The position numbers were made by a program, and so were the translations under genes. Shown here piece after piece: positions 26,413 to 52,868 of a stretch of 60,491 bases of DNA (within the stretch, counting starts at the first letter, position 1; every line of letters begins with the position of its first letter). The stretch spans positions 1 through 60,491 of the forward strand of contig QKDR01000029.1 of NCBI GenBank assembly GCA_003252515.1, given 5' to 3'. The notes under the pieces are model-generated. The model was not told the DNA's origin. It worked only from the letters and a program-made list of their open reading frames with translations, and ran no database searches. The DNA is from Candidatus Delongbacteria bacterium. Its GTDB lineage: Bacteria > UBA4055.

Positions 26413-26730
26413 CTACCCGTTCACGGCCCTGATATCGAACTCCTCGACCACATCAAGCACTTTATCCGCGAACTCACTGATGATCTCGTAAAAAGCCTCG
26501 TTCTTGTTGTTCCTAGTCTTCTCGACGACTCCATGCCTTTTAAGTATCGCCAGCTGCTGGGAAACGATCGGGAAAGGTTCGTTGATACATTCGGCCATGT
26601 TCCCGACCCTGCATCTTTCCTCTCTTAATGCCAGAAGCAGATTGATCCTCTTCGGATTACTGAGCGCTTTGAATATCGTAGCCAGTTCCTCATGGTTCTT
26701 CAGATATGTCTTTTTATCTTCATTCTTCAT
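26413..26730 (-). CDS. ArsR/SmtB-family transcriptional regulator
   Basis: ATIFKALSNPKRINLLLAL...CRVGNMAECINEPFPIVSQQLAILKRHGVV is a winged-HTH ArsR signature. It is the last gene of the thioredoxin/OsmC operon. Confidence 0.8.
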   Translation of the reverse strand: MKNEDKKTYLKNHEELATIFKALSNPKRINLLLALREERCRVGNMAECINEPFPIVSQQLAILKRHGVVEKTRNNKNEAFYEIISEFADKVLDVVEEFDIRAVNG

Positions 26731-27151
26731 GCAGAAGCCTGTTGTTTAAAAAAATTTTATTATGTATGTCGCTTGCTTTTCTGAGCATGGCCGACACACC
26801 GCAGTATTTTTCATGCGATAACTCAACTGCTCTCTTAATTTTTTCGGGGTCAATATCATCCGGACCGGTAATATGGTATTCGATAACGATATTTTTATAG
26901 ATCTTCGGATGCTCTTCAGTCTGCCCCGCATCGACCGTAATTGTGAGATCATCGTATTTAACATGCATTTTCTGAAGTATGGAGGCAACATCCATGCCCG
27001 TACAACCCGCCAGACCGCCCAGAAGCAGTCCTTTCGGCGAAGGTCCCTTATCCTCGCCGCCGAACTCCTTCGCTCCGTCTACGAAGTACTTATGACCTTT
27101 CTGGTCGATCTCGAATGCTAGATTACCCTTCTGTACCGCTTTTATTATCAT
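26720..27151 (-). CDS. OsmC-family protein (thiol peroxidase-like)
   Basis: Two conserved Cys contexts, GGLAGCTGMDV and HEKYCGVSAML. About 143 aa. Confidence 0.7.
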   Translation of the reverse strand: MIIKAVQKGNLAFEIDQKGHKYFVDGAKEFGGEDKGPSPKGLLLGGLAGCTGMDVASILQKMHVKYDDLTITVDAGQTEEHPKIYKNIVIEYHITGPDDIDPEKIKRAVELSHEKYCGVSAMLRKASDIHNKIFLNNRLLHEE

Positions 27152-27347
27152 TCTCTTTCCTCTTAATTCTTTTATCGTTTATAACAGAATTTATCATATA
27201 GCCGAAAAAAATACCGTAAAGAACTGAAGTATAGGGATTAGAAGTAATCGGACAGCTGCCGCTTGAACATCCTATAAAATAATAATATGAATAACCCGCC
27301 ACTCCGCCGGTAATGATCAGTAATACTGCAATTAAATTCTTTTTCAC
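27123..27347 (-). CDS. small membrane protein with CxxGxC motif
   Basis: 74 aa with two transmembrane helices flanking FIGCSSGSCPITSNP. It is tightly packed in the operon, with overlaps at both ends. Confidence 0.5.
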   Translation of the reverse strand: MKKNLIAVLLIITGGVAGYSYYYFIGCSSGSCPITSNPYTSVLYGIFFGYMINSVINDKRIKRKENDNKSGTEG

Positions 27348-27766
27348 TATTGCTTCTCTATCGTTTTTTCAGTCGTTTTTCCGGATTTGAAATGTTTCTT
27401 CAGTATATCAAGCATCTGATCTTTGTCTCTGAGGCCCACGAATCCGTCTACAGGTTTTCCTCCGACGAATATCCCCACAGTAGGTATAGACCTTATTCCG
27501 TAACCGCCTGCCGTCCGCCTGTTATTATCAACGTTCAGTTTGCCGAATTTCATTTCAAGGTGATGCTCTTCGGCAATTTCTTCTATAATCGGACCGAGCT
27601 GCTTACACGGACCGCACCATGGCGCCCAGAAATCTACAAGAACAGCTTCTTCCGACTGAACAACCTCTTTCTCAAAATTCTGGTCTGTAATCTCAGTTAT
27701 GTATTTACTCTCACCGTTCAGCATAAATACGGCCAGCAGCAGCATACCTATTAATAATTTTTTCAT
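27347..27766 (-). CDS. exported thioredoxin (WCGPC)
   Basis: Signal peptide MKKLLIGMLLLAVFMLNG, then the thioredoxin fold motif FWAPWCGPCKQLGP. Confidence 0.85.
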   Translation of the reverse strand: MKKLLIGMLLLAVFMLNGESKYITEITDQNFEKEVVQSEEAVLVDFWAPWCGPCKQLGPIIEEIAEEHHLEMKFGKLNVDNNRRTAGGYGIRSIPTVGIFVGGKPVDGFVGLRDKDQMLDILKKHFKSGKTTEKTIEKQ

Positions 27767-27775
27767 CTTAACGCC

Positions 27776-28102
27776 TTATTTTTTAATATATTTATCCAGT
27801 TTCGCTTTTATGTTAGCTTCCGGATGAGCGCCGATAAGTCCGTCAACTACCTCACCATTTACAAAGATCAGCATTGTCGGTATAGACTGGATATTGTAAT
27901 TCATCGCTGTTTCCCTGTTGTGGTCGACGTCAAGTTTAGCGATCTTGAATTTTCCCTGATATTCATCGGCGAGTTTTTCTATTACAGGCCCTACCATTCT
28001 GCACGGAGCGCACCATTCCGCCCAGCAATCAACAAGAACCGGAATATCTGATTTTATCACTTCTTTTTCGAAGTCGGCGTCGTGTACGTGTAATGCTCCC
28101 AT
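27776..28102 (-). CDS. thioredoxin (WCAPC)
   Basis: CWAEWCAPCRMVGP. I prefer the start at 28102 (MGALHV, AAGGAG RBS). The ORF-track start at 28147 lies inside the conserved promoter-proximal block. Confidence 0.85.
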   Translation of the reverse strand: MGALHVHDADFEKEVIKSDIPVLVDCWAEWCAPCRMVGPVIEKLADEYQGKFKIAKLDVDHNRETAMNYNIQSIPTMLIFVNGEVVDGLIGAHPEANIKAKLDKYIKK

Positions 28103-28153
28103 TTGTTTCTCCTTTGTCATTTTAGTTATTTCAAAAATAATTAGCATTGTCGC

Positions 28154-28175
28154 TATTTAGTAAATTTACTAAATA
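28154..28175. promoter_or_regulatory. perfect 22-bp palindrome TATTTAGTAAATTTACTAAATA overlapping the -10 of the trx/OsmC/ArsR operon promoter (candidate operator)
   Basis: Verified base by base to be its own reverse complement. It overlaps the -10 hexamer at 28163..28168. Confidence 0.55.
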
Positions 28176-28191
28176 ACAAAGTGAATGTCAA
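28163..28191 (-). promoter_or_regulatory. sigma70-type promoter (P2) of the trx(WCAPC)-trx(WCGPC)-OsmC-ArsR operon
   Basis: On the minus strand: TTGACA (28191..28186), 17-nt spacer, TAAATT (28168..28163). Confidence 0.55.
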
Positions 28192-28249
28192 GTATTATTT
28201 TTCCGGTTTTAATTGACAGGATGATAAAATATGTTATAGGCAGTAGATA

Positions 28250-28597
28250 TCAGGCTTTTTTGCTTTTTTTCGGCTTCTTTGTCAAATATTTGTCCAGTAT
28301 AGCGTTCAGATCTTCCTCAGGGTCCACTTCCTCAAATCTTTCCAGTTCTTCACCGTTTATTATCACAAGAAGGGTGGGTATATATTTGATATTATAAGTC
28401 TCGGCGATCGGTTTATTTTCATTGTAATTCATTTTCCCGACTTTGAATCTGCCCTTGTATTCGTCAGCAAGATCGTCTATCAGCGGATCGACAATCCTGC
28501 ACTGAAAACACCAGTCGGCGCATATATTTAAAAGCACCGGCATTTCCGACTTAAGCACTTCTTTCTCATAATTTTTTTTGTTGATGATCATTGCGCC
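28250..28597 (-). CDS. thioredoxin-like protein with atypical WCFQC active site
   Basis: ICADWCFQCRIVDP in a thioredoxin-fold context. I prefer the start at 28597 (MGAMII, AGGAG RBS). The ORF-track start at 28660 lies in the promoter-proximal conserved block. Confidence 0.75.
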   Translation of the reverse strand, partial: GAMIINKKNYEKEVLKSEMPVLLNICADWCFQCRIVDPLIDDLADEYKGRFKVGKMNYNENKPIAETYNIKYIPTLLVIINGEELERFEEVDPEEDLNAILDKYLTKKPKKSKKA

Positions 28598-28650
28598 CAT
28601 TATTTTCTCCTGCGTGATTAACATTCTGTTAGCATTGTTGCTATGTAGCG

Positions 28651-28679
28651 AATTAAACAAACTTAAAACAGGTTGTCAA
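28651..28679 (-). promoter_or_regulatory. sigma70-type promoter (P1) of the WCFQC thioredoxin gene
   Basis: On the minus strand: TTGACA (28679..28674), 17-nt spacer, TTAATT (28656..28651). It is followed by a block that is 20 of 24 identical to the one downstream of P2. Confidence 0.5.
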
Positions 28680-28693
28680 GTTTTATTTTTACA

Positions 28694-28723
28694 AATAAAA
28701 AAGGCAGACGATCGTCTGCCTTT
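28694..28723 (-). terminator. rho-independent terminator after the giant hdrA-like gene
   Basis: GGCAGACGATCGTCTGCC palindromic hairpin (28703..28720), followed on the minus strand by TTTTTTATTT. Confidence 0.8.
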
Positions 28724-28727
28724 AACA

Positions 28728-31700
28728 TTACCACACTTCAAGCGCTTCGGTCAGCATGGCCAGCGTCTGCTCCTCCTTGAAACCGAGCTGCTGCATCGCG
28801 CCTGACGGACAGACGGAGGCACAGCTTCCGCATCCTTTGCAGAGAGCAGTATTGATATGAGCGAACTCCTTACCGTTCCTCCAGAAGAGTTCCGGAGCTC
28901 CGTAAGGACAAACGGACACGCACATTCCACAACCCGAGCAGACATCAAGGTCCACCTTGGCGATATTGGCTTCGGATATATATTTGTCCGAACTTATTAT
29001 CATACTTGCTCTTTCCGCTGCCGCTTTCGCCTGAGAGATAGTCTCTTCTATCCCCTTGGGAGAATGAGCCAGTCCGGCGAGGAATATCCCTTCGGCTGAG
29101 AAATCGACCGGCCTTAGTTTTACATGCGCTTCCATAAAGAAGTTGTCTTCATTCAATGGAATCTTGAGCATCTGTGAAAGAGTGACCGCATCTTCTCTCG
29201 GTACCATCGCCGATGCAAGAATTACCAGCCCCGGATTGATCACGAGCTCTTCGTTAAGGATATGGTCTTTAACCCTGACCAGCATACCTTTATCCTTTAG
29301 AACAAGGCTCTTGCTGTCGATCTCGACCACGGGTTTGTTATCAGGATTATATTTGACGAAGACTATCCCCATTTCACGAGCCTGTCGGTAATATTTCTCG
29401 TTAAAACCGTAGGTTCTTATATCTCTGTACAGAATGTAGATGTTGACTTGGGGATTCAGTTCTTTCAGTCTTATTGCGTTCTTGATCGACTGGGTACAGC
29501 ATACCCTGGAGCAGTACGGTCTGTTCTCGTCCCTTGAGCCGACGCACTGGATCATCACGACGTTCTTGAATTTCTGATATTTTTTCGGCTCTTTCTCGAA
29601 ATCCTCTTCGAATTCGAGTTGCGTCATTACACCGGGATCCGAGCCGTACAGGTATTCCTCCGGTTTGGATTCGACTGCTCCAGTCGCTATCACGATCACA
29701 CCATGCCTGTACTCAATGGTCTCGTTCTCCGAATTCACGAATGTAGTTTTATAATTTCCTATGTATCCGCCGATCTCGTTTATCTTAGCTTCCGTATAGA
29801 TATGTACGTTCGGATTGTCGTCGAGACTGTCCCTTATCTCAGTTATATACGTCTCTATCTTTTTACCTTCAACATTTTCAGATAACCTGTTGAGATTACC
29901 TCCTAACCGGTCGCTTTTCTCCAGCAGAGCGACTTCGTAACCCTGTTCAGCTATCGACAGAGCTGCGATCATACCCGACAATCCTCCGCCGATGATCAGC
30001 GCTTTCTGCGTAACGTCAAGAGCTACCGTATAGAGCGGTTCGAGAAGTCTTGCTTTACCGACGGCTATCTTAGTCAGACCTTTCGCCTTCTCGGTCGCGT
30101 CCGCGTGATTGTCCTTGTGTACCCAGCTGCACTGGTTCCTTATGTTCGCCATATCGAACAGATAAGGATTGAGCCCTGCTTCCTTGAGCGTCTCCTGAAA
30201 CAGCGCCTCGTGAGTACTTGGGGAACATGACGACACAACTACCCTGTTAAGCTTGTATTCCTTTATTATATCTCTCATCTGTATCTGCGTATCCTGCGAA
30301 CAGGTGAAAAGATTGTCCGACGCGTAAACTACGTTCGGAAGCGTCTTTGCGTACGCAACAACATCTTTCACGTCCACGACGCTGCTGATGTTTATTCCGC
30401 AGTGACATACGAAGACACCTATCCTCGGTGTTTTACCGGTTACGTCAATCTCTTCCGGATAAACTTTTTCCGTTATCTCAGTACCTCTGACTTCCGAAAG
30501 TATCTCCGCAGCTCCCGCGACCGCACCCGAAGCCTGCATCACAGTTTCAGGAATATCTTTTGGCGATACTGCCGGACCGCATACGAAAACGCCCGGTCTT
30601 GATGTCTGGATCGGGTAGATACCGAAATTATCTATGAAATTATACTCGTTCAATCTTACTTTCAGCTTATCCGCAAGATCGGCCGTGTTCTTCTGGGGAT
30701 GCAGACCTATCGAGAGTACTACAAGATCGAATTCCTCTATCGTATTCTTTCCGTCGTCACCGACATAGTAAAGCTCAAGATTACCTGTTTCCGCTATTTC
30801 CTTGATCTTTCCTATCCTGCCTCTTACGAACCTTACTCCTGTCGCTTTGGCTTTATCATAATATTTGTCGAAGTCCTTACCGAAAGCCCTGATGTCCATA
30901 TAGAAGATCGTAGGTTCGACCGTTCCGACGTGCTCTTTAGCGATTATAGCCTCTTTCATGGCATACATACAGCATACCGACGAGCAGTACGGCATAGGGG
31001 ATTCTTCGGTCCTTGATCCGACGCACTGGATCCATGCGATCTTTCTGGGAACCTTTCCGTCGGCGGGTCTCTGAAGGTGACCTTCATAAGGTCCCGAAGC
31101 AGCCAGCACCCTTTCGAACTGGATACTGGTAAGAACGTTCCTGTACCTGCCGAAACCGTATTCATGCATTGCCGTCGGATCATATTTCTCGGCTCCAGTC
31201 GAGACTATTATGGAACCTACGCTTATCTCTATGGTCTCGCCTGTCATTGAATGATCTACAGCACCGGCTTCACATACAGTAACGCACTGCAGACATTCCG
31301 AACATATTCCGCACTCGAGACAGCGTGACGCCTCTTTCTTAACCTGCTCCTCGGAAAATCCCAGTTCGTGCTCATCGAAATTATTAATCCTTTCTTTCGG
31401 GTCCTGTTCGCCCATTTTCGCACGTACTTTTCTCATCACGAACTGGTCTGGCTCTTTAGCCGGGATCAGGTCGTCTCTGACAGTTCTGCCTTCCGTCAGG
31501 TCCTGCTTTCTTAAAAATCTGTCTATGGAAATCGCGGCTTCGTACGCCTGACCTACAGCCTCTACGACCGAAGCAGGTCCCTGTACTGCGTCACCGCCTG
31601 CGAAAATGTCCTTTCCTGTGGATTTGAATGTTAGTTCATCGGCTTTGACCGTGTTCCATTTTGTAACTTCTACGTTATTCCCGTTAAGGAATTTAAGATC

Positions 31701-33185
31701 TGAAGTCTGGGATACTGCCACCATCATGCTGTCGTATTCCTCAGTAATGAACTCTCCGGTCGGTTCGGGTCTTCTTCTTCCCGATTCGTCCCTTACACCA
31801 AGCTTCATCACGGCAAACTTAACCGATTTTATTCTTCCGTTCTCACCGTTTATCTCTACAGGGTTGGTCAGGAATTTAAAATTTATGCCTTCTTCTTCAG
31901 CTGCGACTATCTCGTGCGGCTCGGCCGGCATTTCGCGTCTCGTTCTTCTGTAAACGAGCGTAACGTCGGCGCCGAGTCTTTTGGCGACCCTCGCGCAGTC
32001 TATCGCGGTGTTTCCGCCTCCGATCACAGCGACCTTTTTACCTATCTCGACTTTTTCCTCTCCAAGATTCACTTTCTTAAGAAAATCTATACCGCCGTAA
32101 ACACCGTCCAGCTCCTCTCCCTTTATCTTAAGCGAGAGACTGACCTGCGCGCCGACACCTATGAAGAACGCCTTATATCCTTTTTTCCTTAAGTCCTCGA
32201 AATCTTTCGCAGTCGCGATGTCCGCGCCGGTCTTAAGTTCGATGCCCTCTTTAAGTATCTGCTCTATCTCCCAGTCAAGTTCGTTCCTTGAAAGCCTGTA
32301 AGCAGGAATACATGAGCGCATCATTCCGCCCGGTTTTTTATCTTTTTCATATATAGTGACCTGATAGCCTTTCTGAGCAAGATAGTACGCACATGTAAGT
32401 CCTGCAGGTCCGGCACCTATGACCCCCACTTTTCCCTTATCCTTCGGTACAGGCACATTTTTCTTTTCGAATTCGTCCTGATGCTGATGAACGTAGTCGG
32501 CTATGAACCTCTTGATTGATCTGATCGCTATAGGCTCGTCATATTCCCCTCTGCGGCATTCGATCTCGCACGGATGATGACATACTCTTCCGCATACCGA
32601 CGGGAACGGGTTGTTCTGTCTGATAAGGTCGTACGCTTCTTTGTATTTGCCTTTCGCGGCAAGAGCGACGTACCCCTGAACATGTATTCCCGAAGGGCAG
32701 ACGATCTTACACGGAGCCGTCTCTTTTTTATCGATCACAAAAGCGTTCGGTGATGCCTGAGCGTAAGGTTTATATATAGCTGCTTTCTCCACAAGTCTCT
32801 CGTCGAACACAGATACTGTCGAGATGGGGCAGACGGAAGCACATTCGCCGCATCCGGTACATTTGTCAAGATCGACGAATCTCGGCTTCTTGAACAATTT
32901 TACTTTAAAATTACCTGCCTCACCATCAACAGACAAAAGTTCTGATCCGGTAAGCAGGTCTATATTCAAATGTCTCCCTGCTTCCACAAGCTTGGGAGAT
33001 ATTACACACATAGCGCAGTCGTTTGTCGGGAACGTCTTGTCCAGCTGAGCCATCGTACCGCCTATCGCGGGCGTCTCGTCCATCAGGTATACTTTAAATC
33101 CCGAACCTGCAAGGTCAAGAGACGACTGGATACCGGCGATTCCGGCTCCAACTACAAGTACTGATCCCACTTTATTTTTTTTCAT
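28728..33185 (-). CDS. hdrA: 1485-aa fusion: HdrA-like flavin module carrying a GltD/NfnB-like NAD(P)H module, followed by a complete HdrA module
   Basis: aa 1-150: VVGAGIAGIQSSLDLA...DKTFPTNDCAMCV (HdrA FAD domain). aa ~155-560: CPSGIHVQGYV...NPFPSVCGRVCHHPCEIECRRG, VIGAGPAGLTCAYYL, VAVIGGGNTAIDCAR and FAGGDAV (GltD-like small subunit). aa ~620-905: the rest of the HdrA module, with PYCSSVCCMYAMKEA. aa ~915-1485: RIGVFVCHCGINISS, IIGGGLSGM, PYCSRVCCTQSIKNA and two C-terminal CxxCxxCxxxCP motifs. Confidence 0.8.
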   Translation of the reverse strand: MKKNKVGSVLVVGAGIAGIQSSLDLAGSGFKVYLMDETPAIGGTMAQLDKTFPTNDCAMCVISPKLVEAGRHLNIDLLTGSELLSVDGEAGNFKVKLFKKPRFVDLDKCTGCGECASVCPISTVSVFDERLVEKAAIYKPYAQASPNAFVIDKKETAPCKIVCPSGIHVQGYVALAAKGKYKEAYDLIRQNNPFPSVCGRVCHHPCEIECRRGEYDEPIAIRSIKRFIADYVHQHQDEFEKKNVPVPKDKGKVGVIGAGPAGLTCAYYLAQKGYQVTIYEKDKKPGGMMRSCIPAYRLSRNELDWEIEQILKEGIELKTGADIATAKDFEDLRKKGYKAFFIGVGAQVSLSLKIKGEELDGVYGGIDFLKKVNLGEEKVEIGKKVAVIGGGNTAIDCARVAKRLGADVTLVYRRTRREMPAEPHEIVAAEEEGINFKFLTNPVEINGENGRIKSVKFAVMKLGVRDESGRRRPEPTGEFITEEYDSMMVAVSQTSDLKFLNGNNVEVTKWNTVKADELTFKSTGKDIFAGGDAVQGPASVVEAVGQAYEAAISIDRFLRKQDLTEGRTVRDDLIPAKEPDQFVMRKVRAKMGEQDPKERINNFDEHELGFSEEQVKKEASRCLECGICSECLQCVTVCEAGAVDHSMTGETIEISVGSIIVSTGAEKYDPTAMHEYGFGRYRNVLTSIQFERVLAASGPYEGHLQRPADGKVPRKIAWIQCVGSRTEESPMPYCSSVCCMYAMKEAIIAKEHVGTVEPTIFYMDIRAFGKDFDKYYDKAKATGVRFVRGRIGKIKEIAETGNLELYYVGDDGKNTIEEFDLVVLSIGLHPQKNTADLADKLKVRLNEYNFIDNFGIYPIQTSRPGVFVCGPAVSPKDIPETVMQASGAVAGAAEILSEVRGTEITEKVYPEEIDVTGKTPRIGVFVCHCGINISSVVDVKDVVAYAKTLPNVVYASDNLFTCSQDTQIQMRDIIKEYKLNRVVVSSCSPSTHEALFQETLKEAGLNPYLFDMANIRNQCSWVHKDNHADATEKAKGLTKIAVGKARLLEPLYTVALDVTQKALIIGGGLSGMIAALSIAEQGYEVALLEKSDRLGGNLNRLSENVEGKKIETYITEIRDSLDDNPNVHIYTEAKINEIGGYIGNYKTTFVNSENETIEYRHGVIVIATGAVESKPEEYLYGSDPGVMTQLEFEEDFEKEPKKYQKFKNVVMIQCVGSRDENRPYCSRVCCTQSIKNAIRLKELNPQVNIYILYRDIRTYGFNEKYYRQAREMGIVFVKYNPDNKPVVEIDSKSLVLKDKGMLVRVKDHILNEELVINPGLVILASAMVPREDAVTLSQMLKIPLNEDNFFMEAHVKLRPVDFSAEGIFLAGLAHSPKGIEETISQAKAAAERASMIISSDKYISEANIAKVDLDVCSGCGMCVSVCPYGAPELFWRNGKEFAHINTALCKGCGSCASVCPSGAMQQLGFKEEQTLAMLTEALEVW

Positions 33186-35262: not shown

Positions 35263-35289
35263 GAGCAGGAACTATATAAGCTCCTGCTC
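35263..35289 (-). terminator. strong hairpin (11-bp stem, 5-nt loop) between the rhodanese lipoprotein and porin genes; terminator or attenuator
   Basis: On the minus strand: GAGCAGGAGCT-TATAT-AGTTCCTGCTC, followed by TGAATTTTAAATT. Confidence 0.5.
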
Positions 35290-36330: not shown

Positions 36331-36408
36331 TTTGTCCTCCCGGATTTTTTTTCTACCACCTTATTATTACGATCTTAATTTAAGTGAACTCACTTGTTTC
36401 TACCCGCC

Positions 36409-40812: not shown

Positions 40813-40814
40813 TT

Positions 40815-45300: not shown

Positions 45301-45741
45301 CTAAATAAATATATTGTGTTTACTTTCATTCTCACCTTTTTCCAGGATATCTTTTGTGAACTCGTTGCCGACCTGAGCGAATTTCTGCCCTTCCGAAGCC
45401 GAGATCCATGACAACCTGAACCTTTCTTCGTCAAGTCCGAGACCTCCGAACAGGGCTTTTAGAATTTTGATCCTTCTTCTTGTATAGAAATTACCGACCT
45501 GGTAATGGCAGTCGCCGGGGTGTCATCCGCCCACAAGTATGCCGTCAGCCCCTCTCAGGTACGATTTGATAAGGAATACAGGATCGATCCTGCTGGAGCA
45601 CATTACCTTTATCGGCAGAATAGATGTCGGATAGGACATCCTGTTGATACCCGCCAGATCCGCTCCGGTATATGAACACCACTTGCATAAAAAACTTACG
45701 ATCTTTGGTGATTCAGCGCTTTTCATATCTTTATTTTCCAT
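45301..45741 (-). CDS. mvhD: MvhD-like selenoprotein; UGA at 45525..45523 read as Sec
   Basis: The track ORF 45523..45741 ends ...ILVGG at a TGA. The frame continues [13 protein letters not shown]...[11 protein letters not shown] for 73 codons to TAG 45303..45301. Confidence 0.85.
45490..45506 (-). promoter_or_regulatory. SECIS-like hairpin downstream of UGA (mvhD copy 2)
   Basis: In the mRNA: AUUACC-AGGUC-GGUAAU, starting 17 nt after the UGA. The loop contains GGUC. Confidence 0.55.
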
Positions 45742-46854: not shown

Positions 46855-48010
46855 CTAATCCCTCCTGTCTGTCAACACTCTTCACCAGCTCTCCCAGCTG
46901 TCCCAGCTGTCCGAGCTCTTCCTCTTTATAATCTCTCATCGGCAGCGGATCTCCTGTGCTGTTACCTGCTCTGTAATCGAAAGCCTCCTGGGTCTGTGAT
47001 GCCATATAACTGAAAACCGAGGCTACAGGAATATCTACCGGGCAGGCGTCAGAGCACAGTCCGCACGATACGCACGACAGGCTCATATGCGTCATCCTGC
47101 CTATATGGAACATCAGCTTATCTTCCGGGAAAGACAGCGCGCCTTTCTTTGACGCTCTCAGCAGTTTATAATCTGAATTCTGCTCATTTACCGAAGAGTC
47201 AAAAAAGCACTGCCTGCAGTAGCAGATCGGACACACGCTTCCGCAGTTATGACAGCCTATGCATTTCTCAAATACCTTATTAAGGTTCTGCATTCCGTCG
47301 ACCGAGGCTGCGGTTTCCGTGAATACTTTTGTTCTTTTTTCTTTCCTTACTGACAAGGCGGCGCTGAAAGAGTCTTCAGCGGGTTTCATATCTTCTTCTG
47401 CCTTCAGACCGCAGTCAGTGATAAATGAATTCCCTTTCTCGGTAACAGGCACAAGGTACAGATCGCTGTCTGTTTCTGAAATATGCATGTCGGATGAAGT
47501 TCTGCCGAATTCAGTACAGGTACCACAAATGCTCTTCATTATATCCGAATTATATTCCCCGCTCATGAAAGCCGAGTTAAAATCACTGCCTTTACCTTCG
47601 GGATCTTTGATGAAATCCTGCATCGGGACCGCTCCGGGGCAATCGTATGTTATCAGAAAAAGGTCTTCGGAATGAACCTGATTAAGTTTAATAAGTTCGG
47701 TCAACGCTCTTATCTCGCAGGGTCTCACAAGCACGCATGTCCTGTACTTTCCGTTCCCTTTTCTTGTCAGTCTTTTAACTGCATTGGCAGCGTTAACCGG
47801 CATTATCGGAGTGATAATGTCGGACATCTCCAGTACCTTCCTGTCCCTGATCAGCATCCAGGCGTATGAATCACCGGAAGGTACTTTTACGGGAAGAAAG
47901 GCCGCATCCGCAATTCCCGAATCCAGAGCTTTAACCAGAAAGTCCTTTATCACTTCTCTGTAATTTTGTTTAGAACCCAGTTTGACTCCCTTCGGAGTGA
48001 TTATATCCAT
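46847..48010 (-). CDS. Fe-S protein, local paralog family (FrhB/FlxC-like?)
   Basis: RPCEIRAL motif. CIGCHNCGSVCPICYCRQCFF...LMFHIGRMTHMSLSCVSCGLCSDACPVDIPV. 8-nt overlap with the downstream paralog. Confidence 0.6.
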   Translation of the reverse strand: MDIITPKGVKLGSKQNYREVIKDFLVKALDSGIADAAFLPVKVPSGDSYAWMLIRDRKVLEMSDIITPIMPVNAANAVKRLTRKGNGKYRTCVLVRPCEIRALTELIKLNQVHSEDLFLITYDCPGAVPMQDFIKDPEGKGSDFNSAFMSGEYNSDIMKSICGTCTEFGRTSSDMHISETDSDLYLVPVTEKGNSFITDCGLKAEEDMKPAEDSFSAALSVRKEKRTKVFTETAASVDGMQNLNKVFEKCIGCHNCGSVCPICYCRQCFFDSSVNEQNSDYKLLRASKKGALSFPEDKLMFHIGRMTHMSLSCVSCGLCSDACPVDIPVASVFSYMASQTQEAFDYRAGNSTGDPLPMRDYKEEELGQLGQLGELVKSVDRQEGLDA

Positions 48011-48020: not shown

Positions 48021-49706
48021 CTACCTTACAGCTTCTTTAATTTCCTGGAACAGCTGCGGGTTGGTGAAATGCCTTGATCTTATTGAACCTGAAGGACAGC
48101 TTCCCACGCAGTTACCGCATCCTCTGCAAACGGCACCGTTGACTACCGAGACCGCTTTCGCATCATCAAAATAAATAGCACCGTATTTACATACTTTGAG
48201 ACATGTCTGACATCCGGTACAGTACGCTTCCAGAACTTCAGACACCTTAACTTCAGGAACGATCTTCTGACCGGGAATAAGCTGGGTAGATATCTTTGCG
48301 ACAGCCGCTTTCGCCTGTATTATGGAATCTGCGACATTAGCCGGACCGTGAGCGGCACCGACGGCAAAGATACCGTCGTTGGATGAAGATATCGGATTTA
48401 TCTTAAGATGAGCTTCTTTTATGAATCCGTATTCGTCAAGATCGATATTGAGAAGTTGAGCAAGTTCTTTAGTTCCCATGGCCGGTATGACCGACTTGGC
48501 GTAAATTATCATATCGTGCTCATCTGTTCCCTCTGTACCATAAGGATCGGCGTATTTTACCGTCTCGCCTTTAAGATTGAGACCGCTGATATATTTGAAT
48601 TCAATACCTTCCTCTCTGACATCCTTATAGAATGACTGACTGTCTTTTGTAGGAAGGCACAGATCTCTGATGTAATGGACGACAGGAACATCGGGATACA
48701 TGGCTCTTATATATGATGATATCTTTATCAGATAATTGCAGCAGATCTTTGAACAGTAGCCGGATAACTCTCTTCCGACACAGTGTATAATTCCCACTGA
48801 AGTTGGTGTCTTGCCGTTTTTCTTCAGCACTTTCTTCTGCTGAGCCATAAGAGCTTCTATCTCGAGTCCGCAATGTACATCGTGTTCGTCTGAAAATTCC
48901 ATGTATGCTGATTCTCCGGCATGAAGCAGTTCGTATCCCGTCGCGACTATAACGGCTCCTGCCATGAATTCCGTAGTATCGTTGTTAACAAGATTTCTTA
49001 TAACAATTTCATAATTACCCTGAAAACCTATAATACTTTCAAGCTTTGTACTTGTAAACACTTTTATATTCGGGTTCTTTTTGAGTTTTGCGAGCTTCTG
49101 ACTTATCATGTTCAGGTTCGATCCCTGCTCGGTCAGCAGGCCGTGAAGCCTGGTAGTCTTACCTCCCAGTTCCGGGGCTCTTTCGATAAGATAGACCGTC
49201 CTGTCCTTTGATGCAAGGTTCAGAGAAGCCTGAACACCGGCTATACCTGCTCCGATCACAAGCACATCGCAGTTAGAATCAAGCTGGTTCTCAAATAACT
49301 GTTCCTGATACAGAACTCTGTTCATACCGCCGTGAATATACTTGACGGCTTTATCCGTCGACTGTTCCTTGTCAGGTATTACCCATGCGCATTGCTCTCT
49401 GATATTCACCATCGTATAAAGATAAGGGTTCAGCTTTGTTTTCTTGCAGACCCCGATGAAAGTCGAATCGTGCTCTCTCGGTGAACAGGCGGCGCAGACC
49501 ATATGGGTAAGTTCGTTTGAATTTATCTCATCCTCAAGAAATTTCTTGCCTTCGTTCGAACAGAGAAGCTTATGTCGTCTTATAACAAGCTCTTTATCAC
49601 CGAAATCCTTCAGCCCGGCTATTTCCGCTGCTATCCTGTCCATATCCACTTTACTGGCTATGTTGGGACCGCACTCGCATAAGAATATTCCTATTTTATC
49701 ACCCAT
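48021..49706 (-). CDS. hdrA: HdrA, complete canonical-type module (561 aa; second half of a split double HdrA)
   Basis: KIGIFLCECGPNIASKVD N-domain, VIGAGIAGVQASLNLA, GYCSKICCNYLIKIS, and C-terminal CTGCQTCLKVC plus CRGCGNCVGSCP. Confidence 0.8.
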   Translation of the reverse strand: MGDKIGIFLCECGPNIASKVDMDRIAAEIAGLKDFGDKELVIRRHKLLCSNEGKKFLEDEINSNELTHMVCAACSPREHDSTFIGVCKKTKLNPYLYTMVNIREQCAWVIPDKEQSTDKAVKYIHGGMNRVLYQEQLFENQLDSNCDVLVIGAGIAGVQASLNLASKDRTVYLIERAPELGGKTTRLHGLLTEQGSNLNMISQKLAKLKKNPNIKVFTSTKLESIIGFQGNYEIVIRNLVNNDTTEFMAGAVIVATGYELLHAGESAYMEFSDEHDVHCGLEIEALMAQQKKVLKKNGKTPTSVGIIHCVGRELSGYCSKICCNYLIKISSYIRAMYPDVPVVHYIRDLCLPTKDSQSFYKDVREEGIEFKYISGLNLKGETVKYADPYGTEGTDEHDMIIYAKSVIPAMGTKELAQLLNIDLDEYGFIKEAHLKINPISSSNDGIFAVGAAHGPANVADSIIQAKAAVAKISTQLIPGQKIVPEVKVSEVLEAYCTGCQTCLKVCKYGAIYFDDAKAVSVVNGAVCRGCGNCVGSCPSGSIRSRHFTNPQLFQEIKEAVR

Positions 49707-49717
49707 AAACTACCTTA

Positions 49718-51007
49718 TTATTCATTTATTACAGCAAGAATACCCGCCACAGCAGCTTCAGCCTGCAGGATCGAACTCTGAACATCTTTAGGTCCTTCAA
49801 CGCAGCCTGCCACAAAAATACCGGCTCTCGAAGTTTCCACAGATCCTATCTCATACGGCTCTACACTTATAAACCCGTATTTATCTCTATCGATCTTGAG
49901 TATTTCAGTAAGGTCGACAATATTCTTCGGAGGTACAAGAGAATTTGCGAGTATTACCATATCCGTTGAGATCTGCTCAACTTTTCCTTTGTATAAATAT
50001 TTCACATTCAGTTTATCTCCTGCTTCTTCAATATTAATACTGTTCATATCTGCCTGGAAAATAAACTCGGAATCATGAGATTTAACGCTATCATAAAATT
50101 TCTGATAGTTTTTATCAGTTAAACAAATATCGGAATACAGATTGAATATTCTAACGTTTTCCAGTTTGTGTTTTATGAAATGCGCGTGTTTTGAAGAAGA
50201 CATACAGCATACTGTTGAACAGTATCCTGACTCTTCTCTTCCGACACAGTGAATGATAGCTACGGACTCAGGTTTCTTCCCGTTTCGCAGGATTAATTCA
50301 CCCTGAGTAGGTCCGTTAGAAGCGAAAAGCCTTTCGAATTCAAGCGAAGTATATACTCCATCCAGTTTGCTGTATCCCAGTCTGTCAATTTCTGCAGCAT
50401 CGTAAATATCATATCCGGTCGCTACGATAATTCCCGACACACTGAATTCCAGTACCTGATCTGTATCTTTAAGATCAATCGCCGCGAACATGCACGACTC
50501 AACGCATTTCGTACATTCCTCCGTGCCGTTCAGATTCAGGCATTTTTCCCTGTCGATAACCGGTACGTTCGGTAAAGACCCCGAACACGGGACGTAAATA
50601 GCTTTCTTGTCTGCCAGATTCTCTTCCCATTCGTTTTTCAGAACTACAGGACAAACCTCATAACACATTCCGCAACCAAGACAAAGCTCCAGGCTTACAT
50701 ACCTTGCTTTTTTCCTGACCGAGACCTTGAAATCACCTCTGTTTCCTGACACTTTTTCGATCGAGCTGTAAGTTAACACCTGAATGTCTTTATTCTGAAG
50801 TATAGACTGCTGGATCGGTGCTACAAGACAGGTTGAGCAGTCAAGATTCGGAAAAGTCTCCTCGTTCTTGATCGTCTTGCCGCCTATTATCGGGAGTTTT
50901 TCTACAAGGATAACCTTTTTCCCGGCTTTCGAAAGCATAAGTGCGGCTTCCATTCCCGCTACACCGGACCCGATTATCATAACATTTTCATTAGCGCTCA
51001 TCATCAC
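49718..51007 (-). CDS. hdrA: HdrA-like flavin module without N-domain (429 aa; first half of a split double HdrA)
   Basis: IIGSGVAGMEAALMLS...EETFPNLDCSTCL, CLGCGMCYEVCP and GYCSTVCCMSSSKHA. GTG/ATG start at 51007/51004. Confidence 0.8.
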   Translation of the reverse strand: MMMSANENVMIIGSGVAGMEAALMLSKAGKKVILVEKLPIIGGKTIKNEETFPNLDCSTCLVAPIQQSILQNKDIQVLTYSSIEKVSGNRGDFKVSVRKKARYVSLELCLGCGMCYEVCPVVLKNEWEENLADKKAIYVPCSGSLPNVPVIDREKCLNLNGTEECTKCVESCMFAAIDLKDTDQVLEFSVSGIIVATGYDIYDAAEIDRLGYSKLDGVYTSLEFERLFASNGPTQGELILRNGKKPESVAIIHCVGREESGYCSTVCCMSSSKHAHFIKHKLENVRIFNLYSDICLTDKNYQKFYDSVKSHDSEFIFQADMNSINIEEAGDKLNVKYLYKGKVEQISTDMVILANSLVPPKNIVDLTEILKIDRDKYGFISVEPYEIGSVETSRAGIFVAGCVEGPKDVQSSILQAEAAVAGILAVINE

Positions 51008-51014
51008 ATTCCAG

Positions 51015-51437
51015 TTATAAATTGATGTCTTTTGTAACAGGATTAGGACCTAGCTTAGCGATCTTCTTCGTGAACTCATTCACGACCTGTTCGTATTTAT
51101 TGCCTTCCGAAGCTGATATCCACGTAAGCTGGATCCTTTCGGGATCAATATTCAAGGTTTGGAATACCTTTTTAAGGAGAGCGTACCTTCTTCTTGTGTA
51201 GTAATTACCGACCTGGTAATGGCAGTCGCCCGGATGTCAGCCGGCGATCAGAACGCCATCCGCTCCGTTGAAGAAAGTAGTAAGTAATAGATTATGGTCC
51301 ACCCTGCTGGAACACATCACCCTGACGGCGTTGAATCCGGGTGGCAGATTTTTTTTAGCGGCTCCCGCCATATCCGCTGCGGCATATGTACACCAGTTGC
51401 ATAGGAAGCCGACTATTTTCGGATTGAACTCTTCCAT
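51015..51437 (-). CDS. mvhD: MvhD-like selenoprotein; UGA at 51239..51237 read as Sec
   Basis: The track ORF 51237..51437 ends ...VLIAG at a TGA. The frame continues [13 protein letters not shown]...TWISASEGNKY for 73 codons to TAA 51017..51015. Confidence 0.85.
51204..51220 (-). promoter_or_regulatory. SECIS-like hairpin downstream of UGA (mvhD copy 3)
   Basis: In the mRNA: AUUACC-AGGUC-GGUAAU, starting 17 nt after the UGA. Identical to copy 2. Confidence 0.55.
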
Positions 51438-51469
51438 TTAACACTCTGTCAAAAATTACATTAATTTAT

Positions 51470-51499
51470 TAAAAAAGCGCCCGTCTGCTGACGGACGCC
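51470..51499 (-). terminator. rho-independent terminator after the dsrE-like/tusA pair
   Basis: GCGTCCGTC-agca-GACGGGCGC hairpin (one mismatch), followed on the minus strand by TTTTTT. Confidence 0.7.
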
Positions 51500-51512
51500 T
51501 AACGAGAATCGT

Positions 51513-51737
51513 TTATAGCTGGATCTGAGCGTTGTGGACTCCGGAACCGTCGTCCATGCAGAACATCAGGGTTTTTCCGGTTCTGTCGCACCACGCTTTT
51601 ATATCAGTAGGAAATGAAGGGCAGTCGGCTTTTATCTCAAGAATGTCGCCGGGCTGAAGAGTAGGTATTACAGCTACCACTTTTAGTATTGGTTGCGGAC
51701 ATTTCAGTCCTAAGCAGTCTAATTCTTTTGTAGCCAT
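51513..51737 (-). CDS. tusA: TusA-family sulfur carrier protein (copy 2)
   Basis: LDCLGLKCPQPILKVV is the CPxP motif. 74 aa. Confidence 0.85.
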   Translation of the reverse strand: MATKELDCLGLKCPQPILKVVAVIPTLQPGDILEIKADCPSFPTDIKAWCDRTGKTLMFCMDDGSGVHNAQIQL

Positions 51738-51765
51738 TTTGTTCTCCTTTAATTTTTTTAATTTC

Positions 51766-52131
51766 CTAGAATGAAAATGTAAGGTTCGAACCCTGCGCTT
51801 CAGCTACAAAAGTGGTAGCTCCGACAACTTCGCATCCTTCTATCAGATCTTCCTCGTGAAGTCCGTGGACACCAAATCCGAGCTCGCAGATCAGAATTCT
51901 TCCGCCCAAAGCCTTGAATCCTTCCATCATCTCCACAAGATTCGGAAGATTTTTGCTCATTCCTTCTTCATTGAGTTTCTCTATCATCCCTTTTTTCAGC
52001 GCCGGAAGCGCGCTCGGAAGTATAAAGAGTATCACTTCATCCCCGCTTGCAAGAGCTGATACGGAGATAGTTACTGCAGGATAAATGTTCTTTACTTCCG
52101 ATCCGTTAAGAGTGATTGCCAGTTTGCCCAT
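51766..52131 (-). CDS. DsrE/DsrF-like family protein
   Basis: 121 aa. Small alpha/beta protein with ...ILFILPSA... and GGRILICELG (conserved Cys context). Adjacent to tusA. Confidence 0.6.
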   Translation of the reverse strand: MGKLAITLNGSEVKNIYPAVTISVSALASGDEVILFILPSALPALKKGMIEKLNEEGMSKNLPNLVEMMEGFKALGGRILICELGFGVHGLHEEDLIEGCEVVGATTFVAEAQGSNLTFSF

Positions 52132-52163
52132 TTTTTCTCCCTGTGTAATTTTTCACATTTTTA

Positions 52164-52192
52164 AATTTATTTCACATATTGCCGTTTGTCAA
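52164..52192 (-). promoter_or_regulatory. sigma70-type promoter of the dsrE-like/tusA operon
   Basis: On the minus strand: TTGACA (52192..52187), 17-nt spacer, TAAATT (52169..52164). The -10 is bracketed by TGTGAAA repeats. Confidence 0.5.
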
Positions 52193-52258
52193 GAACTTTT
52201 TATCTAATTATTTGCATATCTATATATCCGAATAGTGCGATATTCATGATTAAAAAAA

Positions 52259-52531
52259 TTATTCCTTCATAGTTTCCATAAGATTTATAAGACTGATGCA
52301 GAACTTATCAATCACTTGATAACATATCTCAGTACCTTTTCTTTTACCCTTGATAATGCCTGAATCTTTCAGTACTCTCAGATGTTGTGAAATGGTCGAC
52401 TGGGGAAGACCCATTCTTTCGGCGCATTGCGTTACATTGCACTCATTGTGGTACAGTCCGATTATCATTTTCAATCTGTGAGGATGAGAGAGAGGTTTGA
52501 GAAGGTTGCTTATTTTTTCGAAATCCGGCAT
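52259..52531 (-). CDS. ArsR/SmtB-family transcriptional regulator (Cys-x4-Cys in the helix preceding the recognition helix)
   Basis: LSHPHRLKMIIGLYHNECNVTQCAERMGLPQSTISQHLRVLKDSGII. Confidence 0.8.
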   Translation of the reverse strand: MPDFEKISNLLKPLSHPHRLKMIIGLYHNECNVTQCAERMGLPQSTISQHLRVLKDSGIIKGKRKGTEICYQVIDKFCISLINLMETMKE

Positions 52532-52564
52532 TACTTTTCCCTTACGTTAATTAAATCACGACAA

Positions 52565-52593
52565 AACATAACAAGGTACATGACCGATGTCAA
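52565..52593 (-). promoter_or_regulatory. sigma70-type promoter of the ArsR-type regulator gene
   Basis: On the minus strand: TTGACA (52593..52588), 17-nt spacer, TATGTT (52570..52565). Confidence 0.5.
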
Positions 52594-52643
52594 GTATTTT
52601 TTTTATTCAAATATTCAGATAAATAAATATATACAGTGCCTGA

Positions 52644-52868
52644 TTATAGCTGAATCTGGGCGGTATGCACCCCTGAACCGTCGTCCATACAGAACATCAG
52701 TGTCTTTCCTGTTCTGTCGCACCACGCTTTTATATCGGTTGGAAAAGAAGGACAATCGGCTTTTACTTCCAGAACGTCTCCGGCGGGTATGGTCGGGATC
52801 TTAGCTACCACTTTTAAAATAGGCTGCGGGCATTTCAATCCTAAACAATCTAATTCGTGAGTTGCCAT
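52644..52868 (-). CDS. tusA: TusA-family sulfur carrier protein (copy 3, close paralog of 51513..51737)
   Basis: MATHELDCLGLKCPQPILKVVAKIP... It differs from copy 2 at only about 9 of 74 residues. Confidence 0.85.
   Translation of the reverse strand: MATHELDCLGLKCPQPILKVVAKIPTIPAGDVLEVKADCPSFPTDIKAWCDRTGKTLMFCMDDGSGVHTAQIQL

Follow-up and report, generated by a model that had tools for sequence, protein, structure and literature searches.

What does an HdrA-based complex act on when it is encoded among sulfur carriers and without HdrB? HdrA-based complexes are central to anaerobic energy conservation and, to our knowledge, in every characterised case the partner of HdrA sets what is reduced: HdrB, BamB/D or, for Qmo, AprAB. 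The question is raised by an island at positions 26413–52868 of contig QKDR01000029.1 (Candidatus Delongbacteria bacterium, assembly GCA_003252515.1), which we analysed as one stretch of 60,491 nucleotides (nt), here called the window. An initial annotation, made from the sequence and its open reading frames (ORFs) alone, had described a tightly packed single-strand island that joins six HdrA-type flavin modules to a sulfur relay. The layout is as described: all 29 genes, and hence all island features given below, lie on the minus strand, the coding share is 97%, and 19 of the 28 intergenic gaps are at most 25 nt, while 7 of the 28 are overlaps. Every family named in that annotation was recovered by profile hidden Markov model searches against Pfam or by PDB searches. 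In the order of transcription, the island encodes TusA_a, ArsR, a DsrE-like protein, TusA_b, MvhD, HdrA(N), HdrA(C) and two FdhB-like proteins of 387 and 363 amino acids (aa); then MvhD, a fused HdrA of 1018 aa, MvhD, an Fe-S protein of 321 aa, and HydB/AsrA-like, HydG/AsrB-like and HdrC-like subunits; then TusA_c, YeeE, rhodaneses of 183 and 343 aa, a porin and a rhodanese of 286 aa; and finally an HdrL-type protein of 1485 aa, three thioredoxins, DUF6132, OsmC and a second ArsR.

On balance, we lean towards reading this island as a system by which a fermentative, Delongbacteria-like anaerobe imports sulfane sulfur and reduces it. In the envelope, a porin with a cysteine/selenocysteine (Cys/Sec) site and three exported rhodaneses would take sulfane sulfur off thiosulfate or polysulfide, and YeeE with its partner TusA_c would move the sulfur across the inner membrane. 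A four-Cys TusA_b and the DsrE-like protein would carry it as a protein persulfide to HdrA complexes that lack HdrB (an N-type/C-type pair with MvhD adaptors), which would reduce the carried sulfur to H2S; the core HdrA pair would additionally carry the two FdhB-like subunits. Electrons would enter from NAD(P)H via a HydB/HydG (Flx-like) module and via the NfnB-like insert of HdrL, with ferredoxin coupling at the HdrA flavin. The net result would be that NAD(P)H and ferredoxin are re-oxidised with sulfur as electron acceptor instead of through H2 formation. The substrate, the catalytic site and the direction of electron flow in this scheme we infer from sequence.

The proposed link between sulfur carriers and HdrA can be followed in relatives. 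An alignment of FdhB-like sequences was used to scan metagenome contigs and gave 80 loci; the FdhB-like family itself counts 1144 members at E ≤1e-10, for the most part from Delongbacteria, Cloacimonadota, Krumholzibacteriota, Marinimicrobia and KSB1. Genes in the loci were annotated by phmmer with the window's own proteins and CCG domains by regular expression, and the metagenome loci may over-represent a few lineages. The recurring unit is (MvhD)-DsrE-TusA-MvhD-HdrA(N)-HdrA(C)-FdhB'-FdhB''-(MvhD). In 31 loci, the contig extends for 1.5 kb or more beyond the upstream end of HdrA(N); the gene directly before MvhD-HdrA(N) is TusA in 27 of these, and 25 have DsrE plus TusA in this place. A TusA-YeeE-rhodanese block sits between HdrA(C) and FdhB' in L127, L145, L146, L148 and L152, the unit stands alone in L136, L147, L155 and L158, and L089, L109 and L112 also have the complete set, with porin, rhodaneses, Flx-like module and HdrL. 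The genomes that hold L002 (Cloacimonadota) and L004 (Krumholzibacteriota) share this gene set, with an almost identical gene order, and neither has a CCG protein within 10 kb on either side. The MAGs GCA_021736135.1 and GCA_003369455.1 are among the carriers of the cluster. As controls, we used relatives from a contig scan with the fused-HdrA alignment, which among the matches listed show 44–59% identity. The 80 distant fused-HdrA loci among these matches (Desulfobacterota, archaea and others) contained no DsrE, YeeE, rhodanese or porin gene and a single TusA-like ORF, in L020; none had the set of split HdrA and two FdhB-like genes, and an FeS387-like ORF occurred in two. Because these distant loci lack the sulfur genes, the sulfur link is specific to this clade. 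Gene content, domain architectures, selenocysteine codons and conserved synteny are direct observations, and we conclude that the association of sulfur carriers with Hdr is real and not accidental, which the invariant cysteines of the carriers, given below, also support.

Which way do the electrons run? The constant part of the system in relatives comprises the carriers, the HdrA pair and the FdhB-like pair, and the donor modules vary: they are NAD(P)H-type here and Mvh hydrogenases in locus L142 (52–21125; contig Ga0315551_10000011). There, the DsrE-TusA-HdrA-FdhB core lies amid an HdrB with two CCG domains, HdrL, a TauE/SafE exporter, two Mvh-type [NiFe] hydrogenase gene sets, a HycI maturation protease and an HdrA::MvhD fusion. 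L142 is an H2-linked version of the system, and the initial statement that there is no HdrB and no hydrogenase is thus true of the present locus but not of the family. Mvh-type hydrogenases pass electrons from H2 into HdrA. Because L142 joins the core to hydrogenases of this type, which feed HdrA, we place the core on the acceptor side of a pathway that would be reductive. The varying donor modules likewise favour a reductive role, in which carrier-bound sulfane sulfur would be converted to H2S. In Thermotoga maritima, thiosulfate raises a yeeE/dsrE/tusA unit 42.6-fold, and a cytoplasmic NAD(P)H sulfur reductase (NSR) serves as electron sink (PMC9431562).

The opposite direction has been put forward for the same kind of cluster, which was described in passing in metagenome-assembled genomes (MAGs) of Ca. 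Stygibacter (Cloacimonadota) and guessed to be sulfur-oxidising; for Ca. Stygibacter/Ca. Tenebribacter, an oxidative, sHdr-like system was proposed in which cytoplasmic sulfane-sulfur oxidation supplies reductant, for example for CO2 fixation by the reverse tricarboxylic acid cycle (Williams et al. 2021, PMC8542988). DsrE, TusA and rhodaneses do accompany sHdr systems too (PMC11094781). However, neither HdrB1/B2 (CCG) nor LbpA was found in the window, no sulfite-forming or sulfite-oxidising enzyme is present, and L142 couples the core to H2-oxidising Mvh-type hydrogenases. The HdrA is also far nearer to bifurcating methanogen HdrA (E 2e-85) than to the sHdrA structure 6tjr (E 7e-23); over the modules, the ranges are 2e-85 to 4e-197 and 7e-23 to 5.5e-38, respectively. 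We therefore regard an oxidative role as very unlikely.

The six HdrA modules reside in four proteins of 429, 561, 1018 and 1485 aa and form three N-type/C-type pairs, one split and two fused. All keep the YCSxxCC motif followed by a lysine at CC+5. In the alignment of the 429-aa protein, this lysine coincides with Lys409 (5ODC numbering), which we take to be the lysine at the bifurcating flavin. All four proteins match HdrA, and the three searched against PDB structures did so with E values of 5e-84 to 4e-197; these matches and the motif identify the modules as genuine HdrA, as initially annotated, rather than as generic pyridine-nucleotide disulfide oxidoreductases. The N-type module (429 aa, 49718–51007) aligns to residues 137–556 of HdrA 8rvv_A (E 2e-85) and consists of a thioredoxin reductase (TrxR)-like core with an inserted ferredoxin domain. 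It keeps FPxLDCxxC, and Cys57 and Cys60 of the DCxxC pair are invariant in 44 of 44 orthologues. The C-type module (561 aa, 48021–49706) aligns to residues 13–243 and 325–652 of HdrA 8rvu_a (E 5e-84) and has an N-terminal four-Cys domain, a TrxR core without the insert and a C-terminal ferredoxin domain, but no DCxxC. Modules of the N-type and the C-type are fused in the 1018-aa and 1485-aa proteins. The former (42223–45279; 5odc_A, E 4e-197) has a BamE-like architecture. The latter, an HdrL-type protein (28728–33185; Pfam Fer4_20, Pyr_redox_2, FAD_oxidored and Fer4), additionally contains a Fer4_20/Pyr_redox_2 insert resembling GltD/NfnB, which accounts for the GltD-like NAD(P)H module noted initially; it shares the HdrL architecture described in Desulfobacterium autotrophicum (PMC2702500). 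The division into N-type and C-type halves is also seen in BamE of class II benzoyl-CoA reductase, where the N-terminal half holds the bifurcating FAD and the Cys59–Cys62 pair, equivalent to the DCxxC pair of HdrA, forms a disulfide near the flavin (bioRxiv 10.64898/2026.04.10.717634). In Methanococcus HdrA, a Cys–Sec197 pair forms a selenylsulfide near the flavin.

Three MvhD adaptors accompany these modules (MvhD 1, 51015–51437, FlpD E 1.5e-49; MvhD 2, 45301–45741, FlpD E 8e-46; MvhD 3, 41780–42202, FlpD E 1e-52). Their identity, proposed at the outset, is supported by the Pfam FlpD matches (E about 1e-46 to 1e-53 for the three) and by a full-length match to 5odc_D (E 2e-49, found for MvhD 3). 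Four Fe-S proteins are present, as had been annotated, but they are not four paralogs: three are FrhB/FdhB-like and one is a HydB/AsrA-like Fer4_22 protein. The 387-aa FdhB/FrhB-like Fe-S (flavo)protein (46847–48010) matches FdhB chains in the PDB at E 5e-26 to 2e-14. Its AlphaFold2 model (predicted local distance difference test 72, predicted TM-score 0.72) retrieves 7bkb_E by Foldseek (E 1.5e-13, TM 0.64), followed by FrhB, the N-terminal half of Fsr, HCAR and the sulfhydrogenase beta subunit, and fifteen cysteines are invariant or nearly so (99–100%) in 84 orthologues. The 363-aa paralogue (45763–46854; Pfam Fer4_8 and a weak FrhB_FdhB_C match) shares this Cys pattern and follows the 387-aa gene in 35 of the 36 loci of at least 10 kb.

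On the sulfur side, Pfam recovered the whole annotated inventory: YeeE, three TusA, the DsrE-like protein, three exported rhodaneses, the porin, three thioredoxins, OsmC and two ArsR regulators. The DsrE-like carrier (51766–52131; DrsE_2 E 3e-9, DsrE E 8e-6) has a Cys82 that is invariant in 28 of 28 orthologues. TusA_b (51513–51737; TusA E 5e-17) is the type found directly upstream of MvhD-HdrA in relatives; of its 35 orthologues, all have Cys13 and Cys39 and 94% have Cys50 and Cys60. These residues define a four-Cys TusA subtype, compared with the usual one or two conserved cysteines. Its paralogue of the same subtype, TusA_a (52644–52868; TusA E 7e-17), is 89% identical in aa and 80% in nt sequence, with 31 synonymous and 8 non-synonymous codon differences, and the two genes bracket those for ArsR and DsrE; they look like an old duplication under purifying selection. 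TusA_c (38193–38420; TusA E 6e-29) is the partner of the YeeE/YedE-family membrane transporter (36967–38181; Sulf_transp E 2e-45) and adjoins YeeE in 10 of the 36 loci of at least 10 kb. YeeE has three conserved cysteines; its best NCBIfam match is YedE/FdhT (111 bits), followed by TsuA (81 bits), both below cutoff.

All three rhodaneses bear signal or lipoprotein leaders. The 183-aa protein is an exported lipoprotein (36400–36960; Pfam Rhodanese). The 343-aa lipoprotein (35299–36330; Pfam Rhodanese, lipobox FIISC) has two rhodanese-like domains, with Cys121 and Cys287 invariant in 9 orthologues. The exported two-domain protein of 286 aa (33267–34127; Pfam Rhodanese E 3e-38, two stretches) is SseA/MST-like, scoring 142 bits against NCBIfam 3-MST (cutoff 250). 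Next to it lies the outer-membrane porin (34146–35237; Porin_O_P E 4.5e-17 for the read-through product), which has two further conserved cysteines besides the Cys/Sec site, one after the signal peptide (QGCM..SDEGV) and one in NTxC. The porin scores 50 bits against NCBIfam ExtI and the 286-aa rhodanese 46 bits against ExtH, both far below the family cutoffs. None of the island proteins reaches an NCBIfam equivalog cutoff, and therefore no curated name applies.

Where would the electrons come from? Downstream of MvhD 3, an Fe-S protein of 321 aa (40815–41780; Pfam Fer4 families and a weak FrhB_FdhB_C match), a distant FrhB relative in an FlxC-like position, precedes the HydB/AsrA-like Fer4_22 subunit of 364 aa (39757–40851), as it always does in relatives. 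The HydB/AsrA-like protein (Pfam Fer4_22 E 3e-33; NCBIfam AsrA/HydB about 155–160 bits, below cutoffs) resembles the beta subunit of Pyrococcus furiosus sulfhydrogenase I (9nez_B, E 1e-41). It is followed by a HydG/AsrB/FlxA-like protein of 276 aa (38934–39764), whose Pfam domains NAD_binding_1, DHODB_Fe-S_bind and FAD_binding_6 agree with the FAD/NAD(P)/[2Fe-2S] subunit annotated initially (NCBIfam HydG/AsrB 177–226 bits, below cutoffs). The string closes with the annotated HdrC-like subunit, a two-cluster ferredoxin of 164 aa (38424–38918; Pfam Fer4_8 and Fer4_17; TIGR03290 96 bits, cutoff 160), which matches only positions 2–94 of the 360-position QmoC profile. A Qmo-like reading of the split HdrA pair was considered and rejected because the HdrC-like protein lacks the membrane part of QmoC and Apr genes are absent.

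Hdr-type genes of this kind carry the literature label 'uncharacterized Flox-Hdr', and the island might be a generic Flox-Hdr balancer of NAD(P)H and ferredoxin that works on another thiol/disulfide couple, such as the adjacent thioredoxins or a low-molecular-weight thiol, with the sulfur genes supplying sulfur or acting in sensing. Its building block, HdrA2-MvhD-FeS321-HydB-HydG(-HdrC), is indeed widespread without sulfur-carrier genes, the HdrA core is thioredoxin-reductase-like, and three thioredoxin genes follow HdrL (27347–28660; Pfam Thioredoxin E 1e-22 to 9e-31; active sites WCFQC, WCAPC and, in an exported protein, WCGPC). Against this, TusA directly precedes MvhD-HdrA(N) in 27 of 31 loci, YeeE-TusA lies inside the operon in five, the split HdrA pair and both FdhB-like genes travel with TusA and DsrE, and thioredoxins were not seen beside HdrL in L002. 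A balancer of this type is unlikely in our view. The thioredoxin nearest HdrL (28250–28660) combines the atypical WCFQC site with an N-terminal extension, and it is the WCGPC protein that has the signal peptide. A different neighbourhood is seen in L130 (1890–5011), where a GlcD-like FAD-linked oxidase and an HdrD-like protein (Fer4_8 and CCG), resembling a lactate/glycolate-dehydrogenase pair, are encoded just upstream of MvhD-DsrE-TusA-MvhD-HdrA; genes for malic enzyme, fumarase and an [FeFe]-hydrogenase-like protein lie downstream.

The gene identifications of the initial annotation stand, but five in-frame TGA codons, best read as selenocysteine, had been overlooked: one in every MvhD gene, one in the porin gene and one in that of the 183-aa rhodanese. 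Each MvhD ORF halts at a TGA (51237–51239, 45523–45525 and 42002–42004 in MvhD 1 to 3) and resumes in frame with HPGDCHY, giving the motif G-U-HPGDCHY in MvhD 1 and read-through products of 140 to 146 aa (140 aa for MvhD 1); gene callers break each into a stub of 66–72 aa and an unannotated rest. In 5ODC MvhD, the residue aligned with the UGA is the first Cys of GGCHxGDCHY. Across related loci, this site holds UGA in 42 cases and Cys in 80, and its use is coherent within loci: of 63 loci, 18 are all-Sec, 44 all-Cys and 1 is mixed, so that the system occurs in a Sec form as well as a Cys form. All three MvhD UGAs are followed 16 nt downstream by a near-identical hairpin, CAUUACC-loop-GGUAAU, with the loop AGGUC in MvhD 1.

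The porin is a candidate, and probable, selenocysteine-containing outer-membrane protein. Its UGA (34464–34466, residue 258) falls in a GGG-U-DG column that is U in the window and in L089 (2791–3970) and C in the uninterrupted orthologues of L004 (1015–2109), L109 and L112; in the L002 porin (Cloacimonadota, 227–1276), the UGA stands one residue later (GGGD-U). Because three divergent lineages show the interruption and all keep the reading frame intact, we rejected a pseudogene. The tail of the 183-aa rhodanese reads …DGG-TGA-GGC-GGG-TAG (UGA 36409–36411), and the orthologues in L089, L109 and L112 end in GGCG or GGCGG; no UGA-containing orthologue was seen in another organism. This is probably a Gly-rich C-terminal Sec of the 'UXX-star' type, which recalls the swinging GCUG tail of mammalian thioredoxin reductase. 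Each UGA is followed at a distance of 13–16 nt by a small hairpin with a GU-containing loop (16 nt in the rhodanese, 13–15 nt in all three Sec forms of the porin), with folding z scores of −0.4 to −1.2 against shuffled sequence, which is not unusual. An Rfam search at gathering thresholds gave no hits and a tRNA search of the window no tRNA gene, so selenocysteine insertion sequence elements and tRNA-Sec have no independent support there. Reassignment of UGA (code 25) was also rejected: TGA serves as the proper stop codon of several genes, and in-frame TGAs are confined to positions that align with Cys. The 'UXX-star' class of C-terminal Sec motifs is listed in a 2026 review of prokaryotic selenoproteins, in which the word 'porin' does not occur. 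We found no description of a Sec porin or a Sec-tailed exported rhodanese, and these selenoprotein forms would put selenium chemistry in the outer envelope.

Five selenoproteins in one island, together with the family scores above, raise the possibility that the import branch, and possibly the reductase, handles selenium, converting selenite or selenotrisulfide to selenide for selenoproteins or detoxification. The YeeE has YedE/FdhT as its best NCBIfam match, the TusA proteins match YedF, and the porin and 286-aa rhodanese weakly resemble ExtI and ExtH of the Geobacter selenite/tellurite operon, all below cutoff. These scores are far below the cutoffs, however, and sulfur and selenium carriers are homologous. 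The all-Cys form of 44 of the 63 loci, including the complete clusters L004, L109 and L112, further indicates that the system is not tied to selenium use, and six HdrA modules would be a large outlay for a trace-element pathway. We thus consider a selenium function highly improbable.

If sulfur is reduced, where might this take place? A regular expression for the CCG motif run over six frames of the whole window gave zero matches; as a control, it found matches in about half of the 80 distant fused-HdrA loci, and all six of its matches that were checked by Pfam were PF02754. Among the scanned window ORFs, Pfam detected no CCG, NiFeSe_Hases, Oxidored_q6 or lipoyl-carrier/GcvH-like domain. The absence of HdrB, MvhA/G and a lipoate-binding protein, initially stated for the island, hence extends across the 60-kb window, including the flanks, where hdrB, mvhAG and lbpA were not found and Pfam identified no gene related to Hdr, hydrogenase or Dsr. 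Three candidate sites remain within the island. The first is the invariant DCxxC pair that would lie beside the flavin of the N-type HdrA. The second is the Cys/Sec (residue 67) beside the [2Fe-2S] cluster of MvhD; a Cys/Sec near an MvhD-type cluster has been likened to ferredoxin:thioredoxin reductase chemistry (bioRxiv 10.64898/2026.04.10.717634). The third candidate comprises the four invariant N-terminal cysteines of the FdhB-like proteins.

Taking these sites further, the seven genes DsrE-TusA-MvhD-HdrA(N)-HdrA(C)-FdhB'-FdhB'' might encode a new, HdrB-independent class of bifurcating/confurcating enzyme that uses a protein 'heterodisulfide' and is fed by a Sec/Cys porin, a Sec-tailed rhodanese, YeeE and TusA in turn. 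Four-Cys TusA loaded by DsrE would then cycle between a persulfide/trisulfide and a dithiol, and would be reduced at the DCxxC pair of HdrA or at the Cys/Sec of the MvhD cluster. We regard this more specific proposal as possible but rather doubtful.

Several points weigh against sulfane-sulfur import and reduction. HdrB, which cleaves the S–S bond in every characterised Hdr, is missing, the island proteins contain no demonstrated cleavage site, and the HdrC-like protein has no obvious partner. The genome could hold an HdrB outside the 60-kb window, and CCG proteins are found nearby in a minority of relatives (5 of the 36 loci of at least 10 kb). The sub-threshold matches of YeeE, the porin and one rhodanese to YedE/FdhT, ExtI and ExtH also count here, and the FdhB-like subunits may be inputs for another two-electron donor, as in Fdh/Elp-Hdr. 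Strong GC-rich, terminator-like hairpins with T-runs at 51475–51500 (after TusA_b), 35263–35289 (after the 343-aa rhodanese) and 28700–28723 (after HdrL) suggest several transcription units instead of a single operon, so the island may be split; promoter and terminator scans of the island showed no enrichment over shuffled sequence. The three hairpins may also act as terminators or attenuators that fix the stoichiometry of carriers to enzymes. Finally, the energetics are constraining. The relevant potentials are −320 mV for NADH, −270 mV for S0/HS−, −402 mV for thiosulfate to HS− and sulfite, and −414 mV for H+/H2. The span from NAD(P)H to S0/HS− is too small for ferredoxin reduction, and therefore confurcation or another acceptor couple would be required. 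In analogy to confurcating hydrogenases, it appears more plausible here that electrons from NAD(P)H and reduced ferredoxin are confurcated onto a sulfur couple of low potential; in L142, bifurcation from H2 is the more plausible mode.

The regulators bear on a further explanation. The gene following TusA_a encodes an ArsR/SmtB-family, BigR-like regulator (52259–52531; Pfam HTH_5 E 7e-12; NCBIfam BigR 57 bits, cutoff 155), and the far end of the island (26413–27347) encodes a DUF6132 membrane protein, an OsmC-like protein and a second ArsR/BigR-like regulator, identified by Pfam and NCBIfam. Persulfide-stress operons typically hold YeeE/TauE-type transporters and multidomain sulfurtransferases. 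Together with the OsmC-like protein and the three thioredoxins, the two regulators would fit a stress system that clears excess reactive sulfane sulfur or sulfide under the control of BigR/SqrR-like, persulfide-sensing repressors. An outer-membrane porin and three exported rhodaneses instead point to active uptake of external sulfur, and the scale of the redox machinery, with its variable coupling to NAD(P)H or hydrogenase, looks catabolic. A stress function is therefore distinctly unlikely, and sulfane-sulfur import and reduction remains the reading that we favour.

To place the island among known systems, we compared it with each in turn. Judged by domain content and the HydB/HydG matches, the island resembles FlxABCD-HdrABC of Desulfovibrio vulgaris and syntrophs: one gene string (41780–38424), together with HdrA2, encodes MvhD (FlxD-like), a pair of Fe-S subunits, a FAD/NAD(P)/[2Fe-2S] subunit, HdrA and an HdrC-like protein, and NAD(P)H is the presumed donor. 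Unlike that system, the island lacks HdrB, has HdrA as a fused or split N-type/C-type pair, and joins the string to TusA, DsrE, YeeE, rhodaneses and a porin, whereas the presumed substrate of FlxABCD-HdrABC is DsrC. With BamDEF(GHI) of the class II benzoyl-CoA reductase of Geobacter metallireducens, it shares a fused HdrA dimer whose N-terminal half has DCxxC and the bifurcating-type lysine, a Sec-containing MvhD-type adaptor (BamF), and NAD(P)H/ferredoxin input coupled to HdrA-type bifurcation. In contrast to Bam, the Pfam scan of the window showed neither BamD (HdrBC-like, CCG) nor the BamBC tungsten enzyme, the partners are sulfur carriers, the MvhD proteins are of canonical length with Sec at a different conserved Cys position, and both HdrA halves keep the lysine where the second half of BamE has Gln. 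The Fdh/Elp-MvhD-HdrABC complexes of methanogens (PDB 7bkb, 8rvu and 9t1s) likewise have FdhB-like subunits beside MvhD and HdrA, and the predicted 387-aa fold matches FdhB over its full length (TM 0.6). However, the island lacks FdhA and HdrB and has two FdhB-like paralogues, and F420 is not expected in these bacteria.

The sHdr-LbpA systems of Hyphomicrobium, Acidithiobacillus and Aquifex also combine Hdr-type proteins with a DsrE-family protein, TusA, a rhodanese and an ArsR-type regulator. Unlike them, the island lacks HdrB1/B2, Hyp and LbpA and thus the hdrC1B1A-hyp-hdrC2B2 set, and its HdrA is of the bifurcating methanogen type with MvhD; the NAD(P)H and hydrogenase inputs point to reduction. 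The closest physiological analogue is the YeeE/DsrE/TusA unit with NSR of Thermotoga maritima (PMC9431562), a fermenter with thiosulfate/sulfur import and cytoplasmic NAD(P)H-dependent reduction. There, the reductase is a single flavoprotein of the CoA-disulfide-reductase type encoded elsewhere, whereas a multi-subunit HdrA/MvhD/FdhB-like assembly is encoded beside the carriers here. ExtH-ExtI of the Geobacter sulfurreducens selenite/tellurite operon provides an outer-membrane porin beside rhodanese-family lipoproteins, but the island has no multihaem cytochromes and its porin carries a Cys/Sec triad. From HdrABC-MvhAGD, the island has HdrA and MvhD but, across the 60-kb window, neither HdrB nor MvhA/MvhG. 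From the YTD cluster of sulfur disproportionators (yedE-tusA-dsrE-chp1-3; PMC12998232), YeeE, TusA and a DsrE-like protein are present but not contiguous. Because it fails one defining feature of each, namely HdrB/CCG, the catalytic partner or LbpA, the island is not a member of the Flx-Hdr, Bam, Fdh/Elp-Hdr or sHdr systems. It probably works most like an HdrA-based bifurcating/confurcating complex with interchangeable inputs and a new output. The initial remark that no characterised system has this composition agrees with the literature that we searched, although the cluster as such had been noticed earlier in the Ca. Stygibacter MAGs.

The surroundings of the island are of a different kind. 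By Pfam, one flank encodes type-IX-secretion cargo, a TonB-dependent receptor, TsaD, NadA, Sua5, RseC and UbiA, and the other an amidohydrolase, an aldo-keto reductase and DUF2089/toastrack genes. At 1774–16474, six large genes follow one another on the minus strand and encode two Por_Secre_tail type-IX cargo proteins, three proteins without a Pfam hit (337, 714 and 1107 aa) and a 1250-aa TonB-dependent receptor with a CarboxypepD_reg domain; this run looks like a polymer-utilisation-type locus and fits an organism of the FCB group. At 52857–54535, a plus-strand ORF of 456 aa overlaps minus-strand ORFs of 141, 174 and 103 aa, none of which has a Pfam hit. The best named relatives of NadA come from Candidatus Delongbacteria, at 75, 72 and 67% identity, with Cloacimonadota next (58%), and the relatives of the fused HdrA rank in the same way, at 81% and 76%. 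An exact-sequence look-up of YeeE returned no record; for the HydG-like protein, it led to an identical Logan contig of 26.8 kb, which adds no sequence beyond the window.

If the favoured reading is correct, protein-bound sulfane sulfur would be a new output for flavin-based electron bifurcation. The island would provide uncultured fermenters of the Delongbacteria, Cloacimonadota and Krumholzibacteriota with an energy-conserving sulfur sink, and it would correct an annotation that currently reads 'sulfur oxidation by Hdr'. It would also explain part of what abundant uncultured fermenters (Cloacimonadota, Krumholzibacteriota, Delongbacteria, Marinisomatota and KSB1) do in the 'cryptic' sulfur cycle of sulfidic sediments and digesters.

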